Below are positions 15,741 through 35,643 of a DNA stretch of 64,000 nucleotides, piece after piece; within the stretch, counting starts at the first letter, position 1; every line of letters begins with the position of its first letter. Source of the stretch: Gemmatimonadota bacterium. Lineage in GTDB: Bacteria; Gemmatimonadota; Gemmatimonadetes; Gemmatimonadales; Gemmatimonadaceae. The stretch lies in the NCBI GenBank assembly GCA_016218305.1, contig JACREJ010000025.1, forward strand, positions 243 through 64,242. The letters run 5' to 3'. A program made the position numbers and the translations under genes. The notes under the pieces are model-generated. The model had not been told where the DNA came from, searched no databases, and saw only the letters and a program-made list of their open reading frames with translations.

Positions 15741-16652
15741 CTACCCGCGCGGGTGGTACTGGCGGTGCACCGACCGCAGATACTCGCGGTCCACGTGCGT
15801 GTAGATCTGCGTGGTGCTGATGTCAGCGTGGCCGAGCATCTCCTGCACCGAGCGCAGGTCGGCGCCGCCTTCAAGCAGGTGCGTGGCAAACGAGTGGCGC
15901 AGCGTGTGCGGCGTGACGGCTTTCGTGATGCCCGCCAGCAGCACGTACTTGCGCAGGATCTTCCACGCCCCCATGCGGCTCAGCGGCGCGCCCCGGGCGT
16001 TCAGGAAGAGGACCCCCGCCCCCTGGCCGCGTTCCAGCCGCGGGCGCAGTTCACGCAGGTAGATGGCCACGGCCCCGGTGGCGTTCCCGCCCACGGGCAC
16101 GAGGCGCTCCTTGCCTCCCTTTCCGAAGACGCGCACCACGCCCTCGTCCAGCATCAGGTCGCTCACCTTGAGCGAGATCCACTCGCCGACGCGCAGCCCC
16201 GCGCCGTAGGCCAGTTCGAGCATGGCGCGGTCGCGAAATGCGAGCGGCTCCTCGAGGGCGATGGCGCCGAGCAGCCGCTCCACCTCCGCGGTCGTCAACA
16301 CGTCCGGCAGCGTCCGCCATTTCCTGGGCGTCTCCAATCGCTCGCTGGGATCGGCCTTCACGATCCCCTCGGCCATCAGGAACTTGAACCAGGTGCGAAT
16401 GGCAGAGACGCCGCGCCGGATGGACGCGGGGGCGAGCCCGAGGTCCTTGAGGTGATAGACGAACTCTCGCAGGTGCGCCGCCGTCAGCGCCGCAGGCGTG
16501 GCGGCGCCGTGTGCGACGGCCCACTCGGCGAGCCGCTGCAGGTCGCGCGTGTAGCTCTCATCCGTGCGCGCGGAGCTTCCCTGCTCGAGCGTCAGGAACT
16601 CGGCGAAGCGCTCGAGCAGGAACGGACGGAGGACCTCGGCGGAACCGGTCAC
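15741..16652 (-). CDS. xerD: Tyrosine site-specific recombinase XerD/XerC family
   Basis: ORF 15741..17291 trimmed to GTG 16652 (GTGA overlap with the dedA stop). ARTDESYTRDLQRL, R...HTLRHSFATHLL...GH...TQIYTHV catalytic motifs; 303 aa. Confidence 0.88.
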   Translation of the reverse strand: MTGSAEVLRPFLLERFAEFLTLEQGSSARTDESYTRDLQRLAEWAVAHGAATPAALTAAHLREFVYHLKDLGLAPASIRRGVSAIRTWFKFLMAEGIVKADPSERLETPRKWRTLPDVLTTAEVERLLGAIALEEPLAFRDRAMLELAYGAGLRVGEWISLKVSDLMLDEGVVRVFGKGGKERLVPVGGNATGAVAIYLRELRPRLERGQGAGVLFLNARGAPLSRMGAWKILRKYVLLAGITKAVTPHTLRHSFATHLLEGGADLRSVQEMLGHADISTTQIYTHVDREYLRSVHRQYHPRG

Positions 16653-17278
16653 TCCGCCTTGCGCGGGTGCTTCGCGCGGTGGCGAAGCCAGAGCCGGCGT
16701 CCCAGTACCGCCAGCGCGGTGATCAGCACGCCGGCGATAATGCCGACGCGGAGCCCGACGAAGTGAAGCGACGCCTTCACCGACTCCCAGTCGGCGCCCA
16801 CCTGGAACGCGATCCAGATGATCAGCCCGTACCAGATGGTGCACGCGAGGGCGGTCACGGCGAGGTACCGCAGCACCGGCACGCGCAGGGCGCCGGCCAT
16901 CGGCGAGACCACGGCGCGCAGGCCGGGGACGAAGCGGCTCACGAAGAGCGCGGCCAGGCCATAGTGCGCGTACAGGCCCTCCAGCTTCTCCTCGGCGTTG
17001 AGCAGGTGGAGGCGCTGCAGCCTCGCGTGCATCCAGTCCGCCCCGAACCGACGCGAGACGGCGTACACCACCAGCGAGCCGAGGACGCTCCCGACGACGA
17101 TGGCGACGACGACCGGCCAGAACTCCGCCTCGCGCCGCGCCGCGTAGAAGGCGCCGAACGCCACGACGATGTCGGCGGGCGCCGGCGGGAAGATGCTCTC
17201 CACGAACGCCACGACGCCGAGCAGGAAATACAGGGTGCCAATGTCCAGCGCGTTGACCCAGTCCAGCACAGCCGTCAC
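16649..17278 (-). CDS. DedA/SNARE-associated family membrane protein
   Basis: Trimmed to GTG 17278 (GTGA overlap with the ispF stop). FVESIFPPAPADIVV motif and 4-5 TM segments; 209 aa. Confidence 0.8.
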   Translation of the reverse strand: MTAVLDWVNALDIGTLYFLLGVVAFVESIFPPAPADIVVAFGAFYAARREAEFWPVVVAIVVGSVLGSLVVYAVSRRFGADWMHARLQRLHLLNAEEKLEGLYAHYGLAALFVSRFVPGLRAVVSPMAGALRVPVLRYLAVTALACTIWYGLIIWIAFQVGADWESVKASLHFVGLRVGIIAGVLITALAVLGRRLWLRHRAKHPRKAE

Positions 17279-18225
17279 CGGCGCTCCACATCGAACGTGG
17301 TGAGCGTGGCGACCGCGATCACCGCGATGCCCTCGCCGCGGCCGATCCACCCCATGCCCTCGTTGCTCTTGCCCTTCACCATCACATCGGCCACGCCCAC
17401 GCCGAGCGCGTGCGCGAGGCGCTCGCGCATGGACGCACGATACGGGCCGATGCGCGGATATTCGGCGATGACGGTGACGTCCACCTGCGACGGCGTCCAT
17501 CCCGACAGGCGCACCCGCTCCACCGCGATATGGAGCATCTCGATGGAGTCGCGCCCCTTGTTGGCGGCGTCGGTGTCCGCGAACATCTCGCCGATGTCGC
17601 CCACGCCGGCGCCGCCAAGGATGGCGTCGGTGACCGCATGCGCCACGGCGTCGCCGTCGCTGTGTCCCACGAGGCGCTGCTGGGCGGGGATGAGCACGCC
17701 GCCGAGCACGACGCCGTCGCCCGGACCGAGGCGGTGCGAGTCATAGCCGATGCCGGTGCGGACGCGCAGGCCCGGACGGGCGTTGGCGGCGGGCGTCGCG
17801 TCGGCGGAGATCTCCGCCGGCAGCTGGTCGAGGCGTTCGGTGCTGATGCCCGCCTCGATGAGCACGCGTCCGGCGCCGCTGAACGGACTGTGGCCCATCG
17901 CCCGCATGATGTCGCCCTCGGTGACGACGCCCCCGCCGCGGCGCTCGGCCTCCTCGCCGGCGGCGCGCAGGATGGCCTCCGCGGCGTCCTCGCTCTCGGC
18001 CATGGCGGCGGCCCCCGCGCCCGAGAGTCGCGACTCCACGGCGCGCACGAGGAGGTCAACGGGCATGCCAAGCATGGCCAGCATCTGGCTCGCGGCGCCG
18101 CGCGGGCTGCGCAGCATGCCAAGCAGCAGGTGCAGCGAGTTCGGGAGGTCAAGACCGTGACGCTCCGCCTCGACCATCGCGGCATCGATGGCCTTACGTG
18201 CTCCAGACCCGAACCGGACTCCCAT
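17275..18225 (-). CDS. ispF: Fusion protein: N-terminal Clp_N (double Clp R repeat) domain + C-terminal 2-C-methyl-D-erythritol 2,4-cyclodiphosphate synthase
   Basis: 316 aa. aa ~8-150 contain two Clp_N-like repeats (ARKAIDAAMVEAERHGLDLPNSLHLLLGML...; AEAILRAAGEEAERRGGGVVTEGDIMRAM...). aa ~155-316 are IspF (GIGYDSHRL, GHSDGDAVAHA, PRIGPY). There is no in-frame ATG/GTG/TTG near the IspF domain start. Confidence 0.85.
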   Translation of the reverse strand: MGVRFGSGARKAIDAAMVEAERHGLDLPNSLHLLLGMLRSPRGAASQMLAMLGMPVDLLVRAVESRLSGAGAAAMAESEDAAEAILRAAGEEAERRGGGVVTEGDIMRAMGHSPFSGAGRVLIEAGISTERLDQLPAEISADATPAANARPGLRVRTGIGYDSHRLGPGDGVVLGGVLIPAQQRLVGHSDGDAVAHAVTDAILGGAGVGDIGEMFADTDAANKGRDSIEMLHIAVERVRLSGWTPSQVDVTVIAEYPRIGPYRASMRERLAHALGVGVADVMVKGKSNEGMGWIGRGEGIAVIAVATLTTFDVERR

Positions 18226-18239
18226 GCGTGCCGTCGCTC

Positions 18240-19274
18240 CTATGCCGCCGCAGTGGCGATGAGTTGGTAATCCTGCCGACGCCGACGCGGCGTGAAGCCG
18301 GCATCGGTGATCAACCGCTCGATCTCTTGCGTCGTGGTCTGATACGTCGTGTTCGCCGCCGACACCACGTTCTCCTCGATCATCAGCGACCCGAAGTCAT
18401 TGCAGCCGTACGACAGCGCGATCTGCCCGATCTTCATGCCCATCGTCACCCAGCTCGCCTGGATGTTCGGGATGTTGTCGAGCACGAGCCGCGAAAAGGC
18501 CACGGTACGAAGGTACTCCACGGCGTCGGTCTTTGGCTGGTGGCTGAGCGTCGGGGTGTTCTCCGGCTGCAGCGGCCAGGTGATGAACGCGGTGAACCCG
18601 TTGGTGCGCGACTGCACGTCGCGGAGCCGCAGGAGGTGCTCCATGCGCTCCTCGAGCGTCTCGCCGATGCCGAACATCATCGTGCAGGAGGTCTTGAGCC
18701 CCTCCTCGTGCGCGATCTCCATGATCTCCAGCCAGCGGTCGGCGCCGGCCTTCTTGGGCGCCACGATGTCGCGCACCCGCTGCACCAGGATCTCGCCGCC
18801 GCCGCCCGGAATCGAGTCGAGCCCGGCCGCGATCAGCTGGCGGATGACCTCGCGCGCCTCCATGCGGTACAGCGTCGCCCAGAAATCCACCTCGCTCGGC
18901 GAGAAGCCGTGCACGTGGATGGGGTGGTGACGCTTGATGTACCGGATCAGCTCCAGGTACCACTCGAACGGGATGTACGGGTTGTGCCCGCCCTGGATGA
19001 GGATCTGGATGCCGCCCAGCGCCTTGGTCTCCTCGATCTTCGCCCCGATCTCTTCATAGGAGAGCGTGTACCCCTCACCGTGCTTCGGGCGCCGGTAGAA
19101 GGCGCAGAAGCCGCAGTCCGCCACGCAGACGTTGGTGTAGTTGATGTTGCGGTCGACGATGTACGAGACGATGCCCTCGGGGTGCAGTTCGCGACGACGC
19201 GCGTCCGCCAGCGCGCCCAGCTCGAGGAGCGGTGCGTGCTTGTAGAGGTCGAGGAGGTTGGAAAGCTCGGACAT
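18240..19274 (-). CDS. mqnC: Radical SAM futalosine-pathway enzyme, most like cyclic dehypoxanthinyl futalosine synthase MqnC
   Basis: 344 aa. DRNINYTNVCVADCGFCAFYR (CX3CX2C), ILIQGG, SIPGGGGEIL and MMFG. The assignment MqnC versus MqnE rests on motif flavour only. Confidence 0.75.
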   Translation of the reverse strand: MSELSNLLDLYKHAPLLELGALADARRRELHPEGIVSYIVDRNINYTNVCVADCGFCAFYRRPKHGEGYTLSYEEIGAKIEETKALGGIQILIQGGHNPYIPFEWYLELIRYIKRHHPIHVHGFSPSEVDFWATLYRMEAREVIRQLIAAGLDSIPGGGGEILVQRVRDIVAPKKAGADRWLEIMEIAHEEGLKTSCTMMFGIGETLEERMEHLLRLRDVQSRTNGFTAFITWPLQPENTPTLSHQPKTDAVEYLRTVAFSRLVLDNIPNIQASWVTMGMKIGQIALSYGCNDFGSLMIEENVVSAANTTYQTTTQEIERLITDAGFTPRRRRQDYQLIATAAA

Positions 19275-19303: not shown

Positions 19304-20149
19304 TCAGGCGGCGGGAAGGAAGACGAGCTTGCCCTGCGGGACCTTCCCCGCAAGCTCTAGACGACGGAAGAACTCGGAAAGTCCCTCGAGGTACTCGAGG
19401 CCGAGGCCATAATCGAGGCCGGCGAGGTACTCAAGGATGACGGGAGATGGGAGACGGGAGATGGGAGACGCCTCCTCAGCGATCGTCCCGAGGTTCGCGA
19501 GGCCCCACGCGCGGCTCTCCATCAGCGCGCCGTGCACCTGCAGGGCCTCACGCACGTTCACCTCACGGCGCGCCACCCAGACGGCGAAGACGAACGGAAG
19601 CCCCGTCCAGCGCTTCCACTCGGCGCCAAGGTCGTAGACGAACGGATAGTCGCGGCCGTGCGCGATGGCCACGGGATGTTCGCGATGCCGCAGCATCAGC
19701 GCCGCATCTCCAATGACCAGACGGGCCGCCACGGGCTCCTGGTCGCGCCGCAGGTCGTCGGCCTCCGTGTCGCCGGGCACAAAGGCGGGCTTCGCTTTCC
19801 AGACGTGCTCAAAGAGCAGCTCGAGCAGCGCCACGGACGTCATCGAGCTGCGGCTGACGAGCACGCGGGCCCCGTCCAGTTCGTGCGCGGGACGCGTCGA
19901 GAAGAGCATCACGCTGCGCACGTCGCCGTGGCATGAGATGGCCAGGTCCGGCAGCAGCAGGTACTTGCCCGCATCGCGCGCGTACTCGACCGCCGAGACG
20001 ACCGAGACGTCGATGGTGCCGTCGGCCATGCCGCGGTTCAGGACGGTCGGGACGCCGCTCACCAGCTCGGCGTCGAGCGTGACGATGCCGCGATCCACCG
20101 CGCCGTAAACCGGCGCGCAGTTGAGGTACGGGATGCGGCCGACGCGCAT
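19304..20149 (-). CDS. mqnA: Chorismate dehydratase MqnA
   Basis: ORF trimmed to MRVGRIPYLNCAPVY (ATG 20149..20147, 1-nt overlap TGATG with the upstream stop); 281 aa. Periplasmic-binding-protein-like fold signature typical of MqnA. Confidence 0.85.
   Translation of the reverse strand: MRVGRIPYLNCAPVYGAVDRGIVTLDAELVSGVPTVLNRGMADGTIDVSVVSAVEYARDAGKYLLLPDLAISCHGDVRSVMLFSTRPAHELDGARVLVSRSSMTSVALLELLFEHVWKAKPAFVPGDTEADDLRRDQEPVAARLVIGDAALMLRHREHPVAIAHGRDYPFVYDLGAEWKRWTGLPFVFAVWVARREVNVREALQVHGALMESRAWGLANLGTIAEEASPISRLPSPVILEYLAGLDYGLGLEYLEGLSEFFRRLELAGKVPQGKLVFLPAA
19443..19470. repeat. Perfect heptamer array (ggagatg ggagacg)x2 inside the mqnA coding region
   Basis: A 14-nt unit duplicated exactly, encoding ASPISRLPSPV on the minus strand. 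Four GGG tracts spaced by 4 nt. Confidence 0.85.
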
Positions 20150-21318
20150 CACGCCACCGCCGCCGCCACCGGCGCCGCGTCGAACGAGGTGCGCAGGATC
20201 CGGTAGAACGAGTCGCGCTCCGCCGGCGTCTTGCCGGCCCCACGGATGAGCGCGAGGATGGCATCGAGCGTCATCGCCTGCGGGGTATGCGCCCCCACGG
20301 CGTGGTAGATCTTCTCGCGGACCACCGTCCCCTCGAGGTCGTTCACGCCATAGTGCAGCGCCACCTGCGAGAGCGACGGCGTGACCATGATCCAGTGCGA
20401 CTTGATGTGCTGGAAGTTGTCGAGGAAGAGGCGCCCGACGGCGAGCTGGCGCAGGTCGTCCCATCCGCTCGTCGCGGTGCCCTGCCGCCCCAGCTCCCGG
20501 CCCAGCTCGTTGTCGTCGGGGTGGTACGCCAAGGGGATGTAGGCGAGGAAGCCGCCGGTCTCGTCCTGCAGGTCGCGCAGCATCTGCAGGTGCTCCAGGC
20601 GGTCGTCGAGCGTCTCCACATGGCCGTAGAGCATGGTGCAGTTGGTGCGGATGCCCAACTCGTGCGCCGTGCGATGCACGCCGATGTACTCCGCCCCCGC
20701 CAGCTTCTTGTCGGAGATGCGCTCCCGCACGGCCGCGCTGAACGTCTCGGCGCCGCCGCCCGGCATCGTGTCGAGCCCCGCGTCCTTGAGCGCCACGAGC
20801 ACGTCACGCCACGGCATCTTCTCGATGCGCGCGATGTGCGCAATCTCCACCGCGGTCAGCGCCTTGATGTGCACGTGCGGGAAGTTGGCCTTGAGCGCGC
20901 GGAACATCTCGGCGTAATAGGCGAGCCCCGCCTTCATGTCGAGCCCGCCCACGATGTGGAACTCGCGCGTCATGCCGTCGGCGGCGTGCGCCGCCTCGCC
21001 GAGCACCTGCTCGAGGGTGTAGCGGTACGCCCCCTCTTCCTTGGGCAGGCGCGCATAGCCGCAAAAGGTGCAGGTCTTTCGCAGCACGCAGATGTTCGTC
21101 GGGTTGATGTGCTGGTTCGACGCGAAGGTCACGACGTCGCCGTTCTTGGCCCGGTTCACGGCGTCGGCCAGCAGTCCCAGCCCCGCGAGGTCGCCGCTGC
21201 GGTAGAGCGCGAGGCCGTCGGTCGCGGTCAGCCGTTCACCGGCCGCTACCCGTTCACCAATGCGTCTTAAGACCGGATCGTGGATCCGGTCGAAGGGGAC
21301 CTGCGCCGTGGCGCCCAT
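20149..21318 (-). CDS. mqnE: Radical SAM futalosine-pathway enzyme, most like aminofutalosine synthase MqnE (non-canonical Cx5Cx2C cluster motif)
   Basis: 389 aa. HINPTNICVLRKTCTFCGYAR, HIVGGL, MPGGGAETF, MLYGHVET and LQDETGGFLAYIPL. Confidence 0.7.
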   Translation of the reverse strand: MGATAQVPFDRIHDPVLRRIGERVAAGERLTATDGLALYRSGDLAGLGLLADAVNRAKNGDVVTFASNQHINPTNICVLRKTCTFCGYARLPKEEGAYRYTLEQVLGEAAHAADGMTREFHIVGGLDMKAGLAYYAEMFRALKANFPHVHIKALTAVEIAHIARIEKMPWRDVLVALKDAGLDTMPGGGAETFSAAVRERISDKKLAGAEYIGVHRTAHELGIRTNCTMLYGHVETLDDRLEHLQMLRDLQDETGGFLAYIPLAYHPDDNELGRELGRQGTATSGWDDLRQLAVGRLFLDNFQHIKSHWIMVTPSLSQVALHYGVNDLEGTVVREKIYHAVGAHTPQAMTLDAILALIRGAGKTPAERDSFYRILRTSFDAAPVAAAVA

Positions 21319-30234: not shown

Positions 30235-32679
30235 CTAGCGTTCGATCGTCAGGTTCCGCAGTTCGGCCATCGCCCGACCGAACGCGTTCCAGTCGGAGCG
30301 GCGTAGTGCATCCTGGAGGGCGGCGTAGACGCGCGCGATGCGCAGGCGCAGGCGCGCATCCGAGTCGGCGACATGCGCCGGTGCGCCGAACGCCGCGGTG
30401 AGCGACATCGCCGTGCGCGCCTGCGGGCCCTGCAGCGCAACGACGCCGGCGAGGCTTGGCGCGCGCTCCGGCACCCACTCGTAGAACGACTGTACGAGCA
30501 ATACGCCGCTCGTCGTCGGGATAACCTGCACGCGTCCACGGCGTGGGTGACGCCGCGTGCGGCTGATGCGCGCCGAGTCGGCGACGCGCTGCAGGCGGTC
30601 GAGCAGCGACGACCAGCGTACGGAGTCTGGCTGCTCGACCAGGACCGTCCGGGGCGCGCGCCCGCCCACCGCCACGAAGACCCCGCGCATGCGGTCCAGT
30701 CCGTCCACAGCGGGGACGCCCCAGGCGAGGGGATGGCCGGCGGCGTTGCTGACGAACGGCGTCGGCGCGCCCGGCAGCAGCTCCACATCGGCGTCATCGG
30801 CCTGGAAGAGCGGGCGCGCCGACAGCGTGTCGGTGCGGAAGCCGGTGCGAGCCAGTGCGCTGCCCTGCACCACGGCCCGGTCCACGGGCGCCGGGAGGGC
30901 AGCGAGCACGTCGTCGTCCACGCCGTGGCCGGTCACGAAGGGCGCCGGCAGATGGTCGCGCCACCAGCGCGTCATCTTGTCGGGCCGGTTCGTGACCAGC
31001 ACCTGCACGCGACCGCTGTGCGCGTTGACCAGCGCGAGGCCGGCCGGCACCGCGAAGCGGCGCGACGCGCCCGCCACCATGAGCGGTTCGGTGAGCGGGT
31101 AGTCGGTGCTCGTGTTGAACAGCTCGACGCTCCACCAGAGCGAGTCGTGCGCCACAACCGCCTGCGGCGTGGGCCCGGCGGTGAAGAACGGCAGCAGGGT
31201 GTGCACCCGATCGCGCACGTCGCGATGCATCAGGAGGCGCGTGCGCGTCGAGTCGGCGTCGCCCGCGGCGAGGCGCAGGTTGCGCACGCCCCACGACAGC
31301 GCGAGCCGGCGCCAGCCGCTGCCGAAGGTTGGCGCGGCGACGCGCCCCAGCGTGTCCGGTATGAGGCGCACCCCGCTGAGGTCGAGCCCCACGGCCAGGG
31401 GCGGCAGCGTGGCATAGGCCGAGGCCCCCGACGGCCATGGGCCGCCGCGTTCGTCCGCATCGGCGGGATCCACTTCCTGCACCAGCAGCGGGCTCAGCGC
31501 CGCATCGGACTGGGAACCGCCGTACGTGAGCATGGCTCGCAGGGAGTCGCCACCAGCGACGCGCCACGATCCCGCTCCCCGCGTGGGCGCGACAGACGGC
31601 TCCGCCGCTGCGGCGAGCGCGAGTGCCGCCGGGTCCCATCCGCTGACACGCTGGGCGATCAGCGACTCGGGCAGCCGCAGGCTGTCGGCGCGAACGCCGC
31701 GCAGGATGTCATCCACGCCGAAGGCACGGCGCGTGTACAGGGTGCGGGCGTGTTCGTACGGGCGCTCGAGCGCGCTCCGTTCGCGGCCCGTGACCGCGCG
31801 CCGGTCGAGCAACGGCAGGCCCACACGCCCCAGCGGACCGGCGACCAGCACCATCAACAGTGAGCCAAGCATGGCGCGCTGATAGCCAATCCAACCCGTC
31901 CATGCCACGAGCACGCCGCAGGCCGCGGTGCAGATGCTCAGCGCGATGAGGTACGGATAGAGCACGCGATGGTCGAAGGCGGTGAACGCCTCGCGCACGC
32001 CGCTGCCGTGGACGAGCAGGTCAAACGAGTCGAGCCGCACGCCCCACGCGATGAGCAGGAGCAGGAAGGCCGAGTAGATGGCGAAGTGCCGCCGCACCCA
32101 GGTGGACACGTGGAGCTGACCGCGCTGCAGGTGCACCGACGGCGTGAGGGCATAGAGAATCATCACCGCCGCGCCAACCGCCGCGGCGAGCAGCACCGCC
32201 CAGTCGCGCAGCATGCGCTCAAACGGCAGCCAGGCCGTCCAGAAGGCGATATCCCGGCCCAGATAGGGGTCGATCTCGCCGAGCGGCGTCGCCCATCTGG
32301 CCCGGAGGAAGACCACCCAGTCGCCCTGTGGAAGCGAGACCGCTGCGGCAATGACCACGCTCAGCGCCGCCGCCGTCAACGTGAGCAGGCGTCCGGGGAC
32401 CGCCTCGCCGATCACCAGGTTCGCGAGGCGGCGCGGCAAGATCAGCGACACGATGGACCGCCGCATCGCCAGCAGGTTCACGAACGTGAAGACGAAGGCG
32501 ACCCCGAAGAGCCCGGCGCGCATCGTCGCGAGCGCCGCGAAGCGCGCGCGCCAGACTGAGGCCATGCCGAGGGCGTCGAACCACGCCCACTCCGCGTACG
32601 CACCCGCCAGCAGGCGCCCCGCAAGGAGCGCGACCGCCAGCGCCGCTCCGGCCAGCGCGAGGGCGCGTCGCAGCGTCAC
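30235..32679 (-). CDS. UPF0182 family large membrane protein
   Basis: 814 aa. N-terminal ...AYAEWAWFDALGMASVW... motif, 7 TM helices, then a large extracytoplasmic domain. GTG start 1 nt after the upstream TAG. Confidence 0.75.
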   Translation of the reverse strand: MTLRRALALAGAALAVALLAGRLLAGAYAEWAWFDALGMASVWRARFAALATMRAGLFGVAFVFTFVNLLAMRRSIVSLILPRRLANLVIGEAVPGRLLTLTAAALSVVIAAAVSLPQGDWVVFLRARWATPLGEIDPYLGRDIAFWTAWLPFERMLRDWAVLLAAAVGAAVMILYALTPSVHLQRGQLHVSTWVRRHFAIYSAFLLLLIAWGVRLDSFDLLVHGSGVREAFTAFDHRVLYPYLIALSICTAACGVLVAWTGWIGYQRAMLGSLLMVLVAGPLGRVGLPLLDRRAVTGRERSALERPYEHARTLYTRRAFGVDDILRGVRADSLRLPESLIAQRVSGWDPAALALAAAAEPSVAPTRGAGSWRVAGGDSLRAMLTYGGSQSDAALSPLLVQEVDPADADERGGPWPSGASAYATLPPLAVGLDLSGVRLIPDTLGRVAAPTFGSGWRRLALSWGVRNLRLAAGDADSTRTRLLMHRDVRDRVHTLLPFFTAGPTPQAVVAHDSLWWSVELFNTSTDYPLTEPLMVAGASRRFAVPAGLALVNAHSGRVQVLVTNRPDKMTRWWRDHLPAPFVTGHGVDDDVLAALPAPVDRAVVQGSALARTGFRTDTLSARPLFQADDADVELLPGAPTPFVSNAAGHPLAWGVPAVDGLDRMRGVFVAVGGRAPRTVLVEQPDSVRWSSLLDRLQRVADSARISRTRRHPRRGRVQVIPTTSGVLLVQSFYEWVPERAPSLAGVVALQGPQARTAMSLTAAFGAPAHVADSDARLRLRIARVYAALQDALRRSDWNAFGRAMAELRNLTIER

Positions 32680-32680
32680 G

Positions 32681-34045
32681 CTACGCGCCGATGCCCTGCG
32701 TCTTCAGCCATCCCTCCACCTCGGCGCGAATCTCGGCCAATCGCGACTCGGACATCGCCTCGAAGCGCATGACGAGGATCGGCTGGGTGTTGGAGGCGCG
32801 AATCAGCCCCCACCCGTCACCGAACAGGATGCGCGCCCCGTCCACCGCAATGACCTCTCGGCGCGAGGCAAAGTACTGCTGGGCCGCCGCCACCACCTCG
32901 AACTTGCGGTCGTCCGGGCAGTCCACGCGCAGTTCGGGCGTGCTGACGAAGCGCGGCACGTCGGCGAGCAGTTCATCCACGCGCTTGCCGCTGTCTCCGA
33001 GAATACGCAGCAGGCGCGCCGCACCGTAGATGGCGTCGTCGTGCCCGTAGAAGCCCTCGGTGAAAAACATGTGTCCCGACATTTCGCCGGCAATCGGCGC
33101 GTGCAGCTCCTTCATCTTCTCCTTGATCAGCGAGTGCCCCGTCTTCCACATCAGGGGTTCGCCCCCGGCGGTGCGGATCGCATCGGGCAGGGCCTGCGAG
33201 CACTTCACGTCGAAGATGATGGCCTGCCCCTTCCCCGTGCGCTCGAGCACGTCGCGCGCGTAGAGGATGAGCAGGTAGTCGCCCCAGATGATCGTCCCGT
33301 TGCCATCCACGATGCCGATGCGGTCGGCGTCGCCGTCGAAGCCGATGCCGAGTTCCGCCCCGGTGCGTCGCACCGCGGCGATCAGGTCCTGCAGGTTTTC
33401 GACGACGGTCGGATCGGGATGGTGGTTCGGGAAGTTGCCGTCACTGTCGGCAAAGAGCAGCTCGGCGTCCACGCCGATGGCCTGGCACACCTGCGGCGCG
33501 GTGAGCGCGCCCACACCGTTCCCGCAATCCACGACGACCTTGATCGGCCGCCTGATCTTGCCGATGCGCTGGGCGATGTCCGCCACGTACTCGGGAATCG
33601 GCTGGATCTCGCGCACGGTTCCCTTGGTCGCGGCGTTCCTGCTGCCCGCGATCAGCTGGTAGAGCCGCTGGATGCCGTCGCCGTGCAGCGAGGTGGCGCC
33701 GATGCTGAGCTTGAAGCCGTTGAATTCGGGCGGATTGTGCGAGCCGGTCACCTGAATGCCGCCAACGACCCCGGCGTGGTGCAGGCTCCAGTACAGCACC
33801 GGCGTCGGCGCAATGCCGATGTCCACGACATCGAGTCCGCAGTCCGTGAGTCCCTTGACCAGGGCATCCCGGAGCGACGCGCCGCTGTGCCGGTTGTCGC
33901 GGCCCACTGCCACCGCGCCCGTGATGCCGCGCTCGGCGAGCACGGCGGCGTATCCGCGGCCAATGCCCTCGGCCGCCTCGATGGTGAGGTCGTCACCGAC
34001 CACGCCGCGAATGTCATACTGGCGAAAGATGCCTGCGCTGATCAT
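32681..34045 (-). CDS. Phosphomannomutase/phosphoglucomutase (alpha-D-phosphohexomutase)
   Basis: 454 aa. FRQYDIRG, active site TGSHNP, metal loop FDGDADR and GEMSGH. Confidence 0.9.
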   Translation of the reverse strand: MISAGIFRQYDIRGVVGDDLTIEAAEGIGRGYAAVLAERGITGAVAVGRDNRHSGASLRDALVKGLTDCGLDVVDIGIAPTPVLYWSLHHAGVVGGIQVTGSHNPPEFNGFKLSIGATSLHGDGIQRLYQLIAGSRNAATKGTVREIQPIPEYVADIAQRIGKIRRPIKVVVDCGNGVGALTAPQVCQAIGVDAELLFADSDGNFPNHHPDPTVVENLQDLIAAVRRTGAELGIGFDGDADRIGIVDGNGTIIWGDYLLILYARDVLERTGKGQAIIFDVKCSQALPDAIRTAGGEPLMWKTGHSLIKEKMKELHAPIAGEMSGHMFFTEGFYGHDDAIYGAARLLRILGDSGKRVDELLADVPRFVSTPELRVDCPDDRKFEVVAAAQQYFASRREVIAVDGARILFGDGWGLIRASNTQPILVMRFEAMSESRLAEIRAEVEGWLKTQGIGA

Positions 34046-34092
34046 GGCTCGTTCTGAACGGGGTGAGCTGGGAACTTAACGCGCCGGAGACA

Positions 34093-34121
34093 GCAACGCC
34101 TCGCGAGTGGCGAGGCGTTGC
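34093..34121 (-). terminator. GC-rich hairpin 8 nt after the nuoN stop (candidate nuo operon terminator)
   Basis: Perfect 12-bp stem GCAACGCCTCGC / GCGAGGCGTTGC with a 5-nt loop. Only a weak U-tract (UGUCU) follows. Confidence 0.45.
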
Positions 34122-34128
34122 GCGGGTC

Positions 34129-35643
34129 TCAGCGGGGCGCGTCGGCTGACGCGGCTTGGACCTGCGGCGCTCGAGGGACTCCGGCCCGGCTCCAGCCGAT
34201 GACGCGCGTCGGGACGAGGCCGAGGACGAGGATCGCGATGGCCGTGGCAAAGACGACGCCGCGTGTGAGGGCGCCGGTGCGTTCCGGCTCCGCCGCCCCG
34301 TCCGGGCGCGCCTTCATGAACATCACGCGCACGACGTTCAGGTAGTAGCCCGCGGACACCACCGAGGTCAGGACCAGCACCACCGCCAGCGTCGTCAACG
34401 GCCGCGGCGCCTCGATGGCGGCCATCAGCAGGTACCACTTCCCGAAGAACCCGACGCCGCCGAAGATCGGGAAGCCCATGAGCGAGAGCATGAAGATCGC
34501 CATGGCGATGGCGAGCCCCGGCCGGACGTGCCAGAGCCCCTCGTAATCCGAGAGGTCATTGTTGGCGTCGCCCTCACGTCCCACGGCGATGACCACCGCA
34601 AAGGCGCCGTACGACGCCAGGGTGTACGCCACGAGATAGAAGAGGAACGCGGCCGAGCCGCCCAGCGTGCCGGCGGCCACTGCCACCAGCAGGTAGCCGG
34701 AATGGGCGATGGACGAGTACGCGAGCAGTCGCTTGAGGTTGCGCTGCGAGAGCGCCACGGTGTTGCCGACGAACATGGCGACCGCGGCCAGCCACCAGAT
34801 GGGCGTGAACCAGGCCTCGCCCATGCCGGCGAGCGCCTCGAGCCAGACGCGCAGCATCGTCGCGAACGCGGCGGCCTTGACGGCCGTGGCCATGAACGCG
34901 GTGATGGGGGTCGGGGCGCCTTCGTAGACGTCGGGCGCCCACATGTGGAACGGCGCGGCGGCGATCTTGAAGCCGAACCCGACCAGCAGGAGGCCGGTGC
35001 CGACCAGCATCATCGGGTGCGCCACGAAGTTGCCGGCCACCACGCGCTGGCCGATGTCGGTAAGGTTCGTGGTGCCCGTGGCGCCGTAGATCAGCGCGAT
35101 GCCGTACAGCAGGAACGCGGTGGCGAACGCGCCGAGCAGGAAGTACTTCAGCGACCCTTCGGCCGACTTGGCGCTGCGCCGATTGAAGCCGGCGAGCACG
35201 TAGATCGCCACCGACATCAGCTCGATGCCGAGGAAGACGATCATCAGGTCGCGCGCGGCGGCGAGGATCATCATGCCCGCGGTGGCGAAGAGCACCAGCA
35301 CGTGCGACTCGGCGGGGAGAATGCGCTCGCGCTGGTTGTACTCCATGCCGAGCGCCACGGCGCCGAACGCGCCGAGCAGGCAGATGAGGTCGGTGGCCCA
35401 GCGGAAGTTGTCCACCGCGATGACGCCGACGTTCGACGACAGGCCGCGGGTGGAGTACCAGAGCGTCATGGCGATGGTCGCCGCGATCAGGGCGAGCGCC
35501 GCCCGGCCGACCGCCTGCTGGTGCTCGGTGGACTCGGGCCGCCAGGCAGCCCAGAGCATCAGGACCATGGCCCCGACGATAAGCAGCAGGTCAGGCCCGA
35601 GAGCCTGCATGAGCTGCGACGGATTCGCGAGATCGAAGATCAT
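34129..35643 (-). CDS. nuoN: NADH-quinone oxidoreductase subunit N
   Basis: 504 aa, about 14 TM, antiporter-like. Start directly follows the nuoM TAA. Confidence 0.93.
   Translation of the reverse strand: MIFDLANPSQLMQALGPDLLLIVGAMVLMLWAAWRPESTEHQQAVGRAALALIAATIAMTLWYSTRGLSSNVGVIAVDNFRWATDLICLLGAFGAVALGMEYNQRERILPAESHVLVLFATAGMMILAAARDLMIVFLGIELMSVAIYVLAGFNRRSAKSAEGSLKYFLLGAFATAFLLYGIALIYGATGTTNLTDIGQRVVAGNFVAHPMMLVGTGLLLVGFGFKIAAAPFHMWAPDVYEGAPTPITAFMATAVKAAAFATMLRVWLEALAGMGEAWFTPIWWLAAVAMFVGNTVALSQRNLKRLLAYSSIAHSGYLLVAVAAGTLGGSAAFLFYLVAYTLASYGAFAVVIAVGREGDANNDLSDYEGLWHVRPGLAIAMAIFMLSLMGFPIFGGVGFFGKWYLLMAAIEAPRPLTTLAVVLVLTSVVSAGYYLNVVRVMFMKARPDGAAEPERTGALTRGVVFATAIAILVLGLVPTRVIGWSRAGVPRAPQVQAASADAPR

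Follow-up and report, generated by a model that had tools for sequence, protein, structure and literature searches.

A ClpC-like N-terminal domain fused to the IspF enzyme of some Gemmatimonadaceae

In this study, we identified a gene in which a double-repeat Clp_N domain (residues 1-133 of the fusion protein) is joined through a linker to IspF (MEcPP synthase), an enzyme of the MEP pathway. The gene lies in the window, by which we mean the whole stretch of 64,000 nucleotides that was analysed. IspF usually occurs as a catalytic trimer without further domains or in fusion with IspD. With moderate confidence, we interpret the product of this gene as a working IspF that carries a selected, flexibly tethered and divergent docking module of the ClpC type, the specificity of which has been altered. 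The features of the gene and of its surroundings are collected in Table 1.

Table 1. Features of the fusion gene and of its neighbours in the window
Feature	Coordinates	Strand	Description
Clp_N-linker-IspF gene	17275..18225	minus	ATG start, 316 codons and TGA stop (17275-17277); from ORF list and translation
AGGAG Shine-Dalgarno-like site	18237..18241	minus	11 nt before the ATG; overlaps the mqnC stop codon (18240-18242)
Clp repeat 1 (residues 3-68)	18022..18219	minus	N-terminus M-x-V-R-F-x3-A-R-K-A-I-D ... H-L-L-L-G; Pfam Clp_N
Clp repeat 2 (residues 79-133)	17827..17991	minus	Motif [ST]-[DE]-x-D-I-[LM]-x-A; profile and fold match
Flexible linker (residues 134-154)	17764..17826	minus	Low pLDDT in the full-length model
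IspF (MEcPP synthase) domain (residues 155-310)	17296..17763	minus	D162, H164 and H188 at zinc-ligand positions
mqnE-like	20149-21318	minus	Pfam Radical_SAM + CofH_C
mqnA	19304-20152	minus	Pfam VitK2_biosynth
mqnC-like	18240-19274	minus	Pfam Radical_SAM + CofH_C
dedA (VTT domain), downstream	16649..17278	minus	Pfam VTT_dom; GTG start

The fusion gene and its domains

The original prediction, made from the letters of the DNA, had given a reading frame of 316 amino acids at these positions without naming a strand. The frame is real and the gene is on the minus strand. When the upstream sequence was read directly, the mqnC stop was found to be separated from the ATG of the fusion gene by 14 nt. 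The codons CTG CGC GTC CGC, which had been reported at the start of the IspF domain with no ATG, GTG or TTG nearby, are codons 153-156 of the gene, and the sequence agrees on both points: no in-frame ATG, GTG or TTG is present in codons 122-172, and the candidates that flank this interval are GTG121 and GTG173. The latter, which is the next candidate start, is located downstream of the catalytic Asp and His. Because of this gap and the position of GTG173, the fusion gene cannot yield plain IspF.

The beginning of the frame is conserved. Among 31 distinct orthologues obtained in genome searches, 30 share the position of the start codon, an ATG or GTG that opens the M-x-V-R-F motif. Pairwise dN/dS of the N-domain was 0.10 in the window's genus (g1) and 0.06 in a second genus, g104; the corresponding values for the IspF domain were 0.13 and 0.05. 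As judged from codon comparison, the conserved start codons and the low N-domain dN/dS show that the N-domain is translated and selected, and that the purifying selection on it is as strong as that on the enzyme. Translation starting downstream, which the original prediction had named as evidence that would speak against a fusion, is contradicted by the same two observations.

It is also conceivable that the fusion is an artefact, either an assembly or frame error that merged two genes or an internal start that leaves no N-terminal product. High-GC genomes give rise to long spurious open frames, and several relatives with plain IspF have junk frames upstream of the gene. We nevertheless consider this explanation very improbable, since the reading frame is uninterrupted in 36 genomes of nine genera from independent assemblies, no start codon is available in codons 122-172, the N-domain dN/dS is as low as stated above, and the predicted fold of the N-domain, described next, is confident.

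The N-domain was recognized at different levels of sensitivity. Pfam Clp_N (PF02861) matched residues 31-67 with 23.3 bits against a cut-off of 20.7 (26.2 bits in the genome scan); Pfam alone passes repeat 1 only and misses repeat 2. In NCBIfam, residues 9-140 aligned with positions 5-139 of ClpB. A profile built from 13 N-domains of relatives matched solved ClpC N-domains with E values from 1e-21 to 1e-17, followed by ClpC2, ClpA, ClpD, ClpB and ClpT. Both repeats were spanned in one such match (profile positions 4-137 against residues 7-139 of chain 3fes), repeat 2 was also covered by the matches to ClpA and ClpB, and repeat 1 aligned with both repeats of B. subtilis ClpC. The N-domain scored 80 bits for ClpC, compared with 48 for ClpA and 37 for ClpB.

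The AlphaFold model of residues 1-135 (pLDDT 88, pTM 0.85) consists of the expected series of helices, and Foldseek superposed it on ClpC and ClpB N-domains with TM scores of 0.75-0.81 over 134-148 columns, that is, over the whole length. No AAA+ module was found by Pfam in the 316 amino acids, which contain Clp_N and YgbB only. The original prediction had placed two Clp_N repeats in about the first 150 residues and had suggested an HMM search of that region and a structure prediction as checks. Both checks were run, and the profile and fold matches bear the assignment out.

Across six genera, the invariant residues are F5, A9, R10, I13, A16, E21, L33, L34 and G36 in repeat 1 and L86, A89, D105, I106, A109, A118, L122 and G126 in repeat 2. 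Most of these positions belong to the core and few are polar (R10, E21 and D105). This pattern argues to some extent against a docking function: the conserved core, rather than the surface, appears to dominate the invariant positions, and any binding surface is therefore putative only.

The C-terminal part had been predicted to be IspF, and the domain is complete. Pfam YgbB (PF02542) matched residues 156-308 with an E value of 5.9e-54 and 183 bits (cut-off 26.7), covering profile positions 2-154 of 155, and TIGR00151 matched with 175 bits (cut-off 116.45). In an alignment of 21 sequences of relatives, D162, H164 and H188 are invariant; we take the zinc-binding Asp-x-His and the His of the HSDGD motif to be the counterparts of E. 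coli D8, H10 and H42. Foldseek superposed the C-terminal half on many solved IspF chains with TM scores of 0.91-0.94, rmsd of 1.4-2.0 A and 40-49% identity. The prediction that this is not an IspD-IspF fusion was also correct: the NCBIfam IspDF model (NF006899) reached 198 bits, short of the 417 required, and its alignment was confined to model positions 220-384, which represent IspF.

In the full-length model, pLDDT falls below 50 at residues 142-151, and with a pTM of 0.52 the geometry between the two domains is not fixed by the model. The linker is short and nearly neutral in the window's genus (dN/dS 0.70), whereas in genus g104 it is constrained (0.04). The g104 linker (loci L030-L056) is about 17 residues longer and reads W-G-V-F-P-E-A-R-G-V-L-R ... 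P-P-x-F. To judge from its length and constraint, it could be an additional functional motif of the g104 proteins.

Only one IspF match was obtained in the window's genome, and it is the fusion gene. The fusion is likewise the only IspF in four near-complete relatives from two genera, each of which possesses IspG. Since it is the sole IspF both in the window's genome and in these ispG-carrying relatives, we infer that the fusion gene encodes the working IspF of the cell, with predicted enzyme activity and a predicted homotrimeric assembly. IspH is present in the window's genome. No ispD had been seen adjacent to the gene, and this holds: the only IspD match (PF01128) is on the same contig, about 50 kb away and outside the window. 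IspG was not found in the window's assembly, which comprises 2.0 Mb in 116 contigs, while 14 genomes of the same genus measure 2.4-3.9 Mb, most of them at least 3.0 Mb. Because same-genus genomes are larger, the missing IspG is probably an assembly gap, and the completeness estimate of 91.7% for this assembly is probably too high.

Distribution, history and gene neighbourhood

A length-filtered protein search for the Clp_N plus YgbB architecture returned more than 100 protein clusters of 312-366 amino acids that share 45-95% identity. Where named, they come from metagenome-assembled genomes (MAGs) of Gemmatimonadaceae or Gemmatimonadota. The named records of fusion proteins are all from uncultured Gemmatimonadaceae or Gemmatimonas MAGs, the isolate names of which suggest lake and groundwater samples. 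In the databases, these proteins go under the name IspF only.

The genome searches gave the same picture. With the full-length profile, IspF was detected in 198 of 201 genomes sampled across the phylum and the N-domain part in the window's genus only. With the N-domain profile at E <= 1e-22, eight of 401 genomes in the phylum sample were positive, all of them in the window's family (7 of 93 sampled relatives and the window's genome itself), and no match was found in the 307 genomes of the other eleven families. Inside Gemmatimonadaceae, the profile matched 36 of 401 genomes and 9 of 77 genera. Genus g104 carried the fusion in all 14 genomes and the window's genus in 11 of 14; in the remaining three, which gave no match, ispF is either truncated at a contig end (one genome) or missing (two genomes). 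Each N-domain locus that was fetched contained IspF in the same reading frame, and at this threshold no stand-alone orthologue of the N-domain was present in the genomes searched. As sampled, the fusion is found only in one family of Gemmatimonadota, in a few uncultured genera.

Single-protein searches of plain-IspF genomes also produced alignments back to query residues 84-111. These alignments were read as compositional and rejected as remnants of the N-domain, because profile matches in those genomes start at about residue 154 and the frames upstream are out-of-frame mqnC sequence.

In the N-domain tree, all fusion copies group in a single clade (support 100/100), which a long branch sets apart from the ClpC N-domains of the window's genome and of B. 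subtilis; the fusion N-domain shares only 27% identity with the ClpC N-domain of the window's genome. This tree shows that, as far as sequence phylogeny can tell, the fusion N-domains share a single origin. In the IspF-domain tree, fusion and plain sequences are interspersed and six changes are counted, at least three of which are forced by well-supported branches; one of the rows labelled plain in that tree is actually a contig-truncated copy. The simplest reading is one insertion followed by several losses. The 5' end of a clpC-like gene, the likely source, would have been copied between mqnC and ispF once, early in Gemmatimonadaceae, and the fusion would subsequently have been lost, or moved, in several lineages. 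It is also possible that the fusion was transferred within the family.

The gene is embedded in a co-directional series in the order mqnE-like, mqnA, mqnC-like, Clp_N-ispF, dedA, xerD-like and pabA/trpG-like, in which the upstream mqn genes represent the futalosine pathway. The GTG of dedA overlaps the TGA stop of ispF as GTGA, a 4-nt coupling overlap at 17275-17278 of the minus strand. In plain-IspF relatives (loci L012, L013, L025 and others), ispF also directly follows an mqnC-like radical SAM gene. No difference was seen between the neighbourhoods of fusion and plain-IspF genomes, the order mqnC-ispF-dedA being present in both. Because the plain-IspF relatives have the same arrangement, the menaquinone-ispF-dedA linkage goes back to the ancestor of the family and does not depend on the N-domain.

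This context bears on the possibility that the N-domain is a metabolic scaffold, recruiting IspD, IspE, IspG or a menaquinone enzyme to the IspF trimer in the way that the IspD domain serves assembly in IspDF. The shared operon with mqnE, mqnA and mqnC would fit such a role, as would the N-terminal position of Clp_N, which is the one that IspD occupies in IspDF. However, relatives with plain IspF have the very same operon context, about 50 kb separate the gene from ispD, and we know of no precedent for Clp_N binding to metabolic enzymes. A scaffold of this kind is therefore improbable in our view.

Ligand sites and possible functions

The N-domains of ClpC read phosphoarginine via two pockets, T7/E32 and T81/E106, and their hydrophobic groove together with K85 serves substrates, cyclic peptides and resting-state contacts (PMC12583610). 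In the fused domain, the residues at T7/E32 and T81/E106 are G6/L31 and E79/G104, and these vary between genera. The equivalent of K85 is a conserved acidic residue, and the equivalents of the groove residues F2 and F80 are not conserved. The window genome's own ClpC retains T7, E32, T81 and E106. Since the pocket residues and the equivalents of F2, F80 and K85 have been lost, the fused domain has kept the fold of a ClpC N-domain but probably differs in the ligands that it reads. A role of the fused domain as a phosphoarginine reader was rejected because the pocket residues are absent.

IspF enzymes are homotrimers. In the interpretation that we favour, a trimeric IspF would display three Clp N-domains per particle on floppy linkers of about 20 residues. 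Clp N-domains are helical and bind peptides or partner proteins, and the partner of the fused domain would most likely differ from the ligands of ClpC, because the phosphoarginine pockets and the ClpC groove residues are lost. Docking would then set the amount, location or activity of IspF and would have no part in catalysis. Points against this reading are that neither the gene neighbourhood nor the presence of the arginine kinase follows the fusion, and that most relatives do well with plain IspF, which makes the added function dispensable.

An alternative that we regard as doubtful, although it has several points in its favour, is control linked to the Clp machinery. Here the N-domain would engage ClpC/ClpP or McsA/McsB, so that IspF is conditionally degraded or the trimer acts as a decoy that competes with ClpC N-domains for adaptors. 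In both cases, the production of MEcPP would be tied to proteotoxic or oxidative stress. The fused domain is nearest to the N-domains of ClpC, as the bit scores above indicate. The window's genome also contains a complete mcsA-mcsB-clpC operon outside the window, on contig C81 at about 31180-34710 (loci L002 and L099), in which mcsA encodes a zinc-finger and UVR protein of 159 amino acids and mcsB an arginine kinase of 359 amino acids; this is the Firmicutes-type phosphoarginine degradation-tag system. In Bacillus-type operons, clpC and ispD-ispF are near neighbours. Plant ClpT, which is a Clp_N domain alone, is among the weak profile matches. By analogy, the plastid Clp protease of plants controls the MEP-pathway enzyme DXS via ClpC1 (PMC4729485), and MEcDP builds up under oxidative stress (PMC13001223).

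Several observations stand against Clp-linked control. Neither of the phosphoarginine pockets is conserved in the fused domain, nor are the equivalents of F2, F80 and K85. Searches of the window's genome, which is incomplete, detected neither ClpS nor MecA. We know of no case in which Clp N-domains bind, as free modules, to each other or to the AAA+ ring. The presence of McsB is independent of the fusion: the arginine kinase family occurs in 97 of 101 sampled genomes of the family irrespective of the fusion and, among 14 control genomes, in Bacillus subtilis only. The idea that McsB tracks the fusion was rejected for this reason. It seems unlikely to us that, through Clp_N, IspF has become a built-in client or an anchor of ClpC-ClpP/McsAB stress proteolysis, an arrangement in which proteostasis would directly set the level of MEcPP, an established metabolite of oxidative stress.

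Comparison with known systems and biological meaning

The IspF half of the protein resembles stand-alone IspF (E. coli 1gx1, P. aeruginosa 5b8f) over residues 155-310, in its zinc-ligand positions and in being the single IspF of a genome that has the MEP pathway. It differs from these enzymes in the extra N-terminal residues, about 150 in number, that make up Clp_N and the linker. With IspDF (Campylobacter jejuni 1w55, Helicobacter pylori 8xhu), it shares a second domain N-terminal to IspF; however, the added domain is not IspD, which is encoded by a separate gene. In a review of the diversity of bacterial isoprenoid pathways, IspDF is the only fusion listed (PMC13001223). The present architecture did not appear in the literature that we searched for IspF together with Clp_N and for IspF in Gemmatimonadota.

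The N-terminal half is most similar to the N-domain of ClpC (B. subtilis 5hbn/2y1q, M. tuberculosis ClpC1 3wdb), with which it shares the fold of a double four-helix repeat, the best profile match and an N-terminal R-F...A-R motif in register. Unlike ClpC, the fusion lacks the AAA+ modules as well as the ligand-site residues discussed above. In mycobacterial ClpC2, a Clp_N-like domain on a transcriptional repressor serves as a sensor of phosphoarginine and antibiotics (PMC13345244). Like the fusion, ClpC2 has a ClpC-type N-domain outside an unfoldase, and the profile matched its structures 8ad9 and 9p2p with E values of 1e-13 to 1e-14. In contrast to the fusion, ClpC2 has retained the cyclomarin site and one of the phosphoarginine sites, and the part joined to its N-domain binds DNA and is not an enzyme. 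Plant ClpT1 and ClpT2 (4y0b/4y0c) likewise contain Clp_N without an ATPase and gave weak profile matches (E 1e-7 and 4e-4), but no enzyme is attached to them and the sequence similarity is low. The ClpT proteins are free plastid proteins that bind the ClpP/R core.

Clp_N domains outside unfoldases are not restricted to these examples. When the N-domain profile was compared with a representative protein library, the matches were dominated by proteins with 4-15 tandem Clp_N repeats, and other fusion partners of the present subfamily did not emerge from them. These non-unfoldase proteins form a large population (P0122-P0270) and reach 1762 amino acids. In one of them, P0157 (1163 amino acids), five Clp_N repeats are accompanied by an AAA lid and a TIR domain, an arrangement that looks like one of the defence type.

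With the fusion described here, an enzyme joins the short list of proteins that carry Clp N-domains without being unfoldases. The fusion also provides a natural tool for learning what a Clp N-domain without phosphoarginine pockets binds. The practical impact is limited, as the lineage is small and uncultured and most of its relatives manage without the domain. If the client or anchor reading were true, gene fusion would have wired into these bacteria a counterpart of the control that Clp exerts on the MEP pathway of plastids. More generally, the fact that the only IspF of this lineage carries a selected docking domain derived from ClpC suggests that the MEP pathway of bacteria is controlled at a level not recognised so far.
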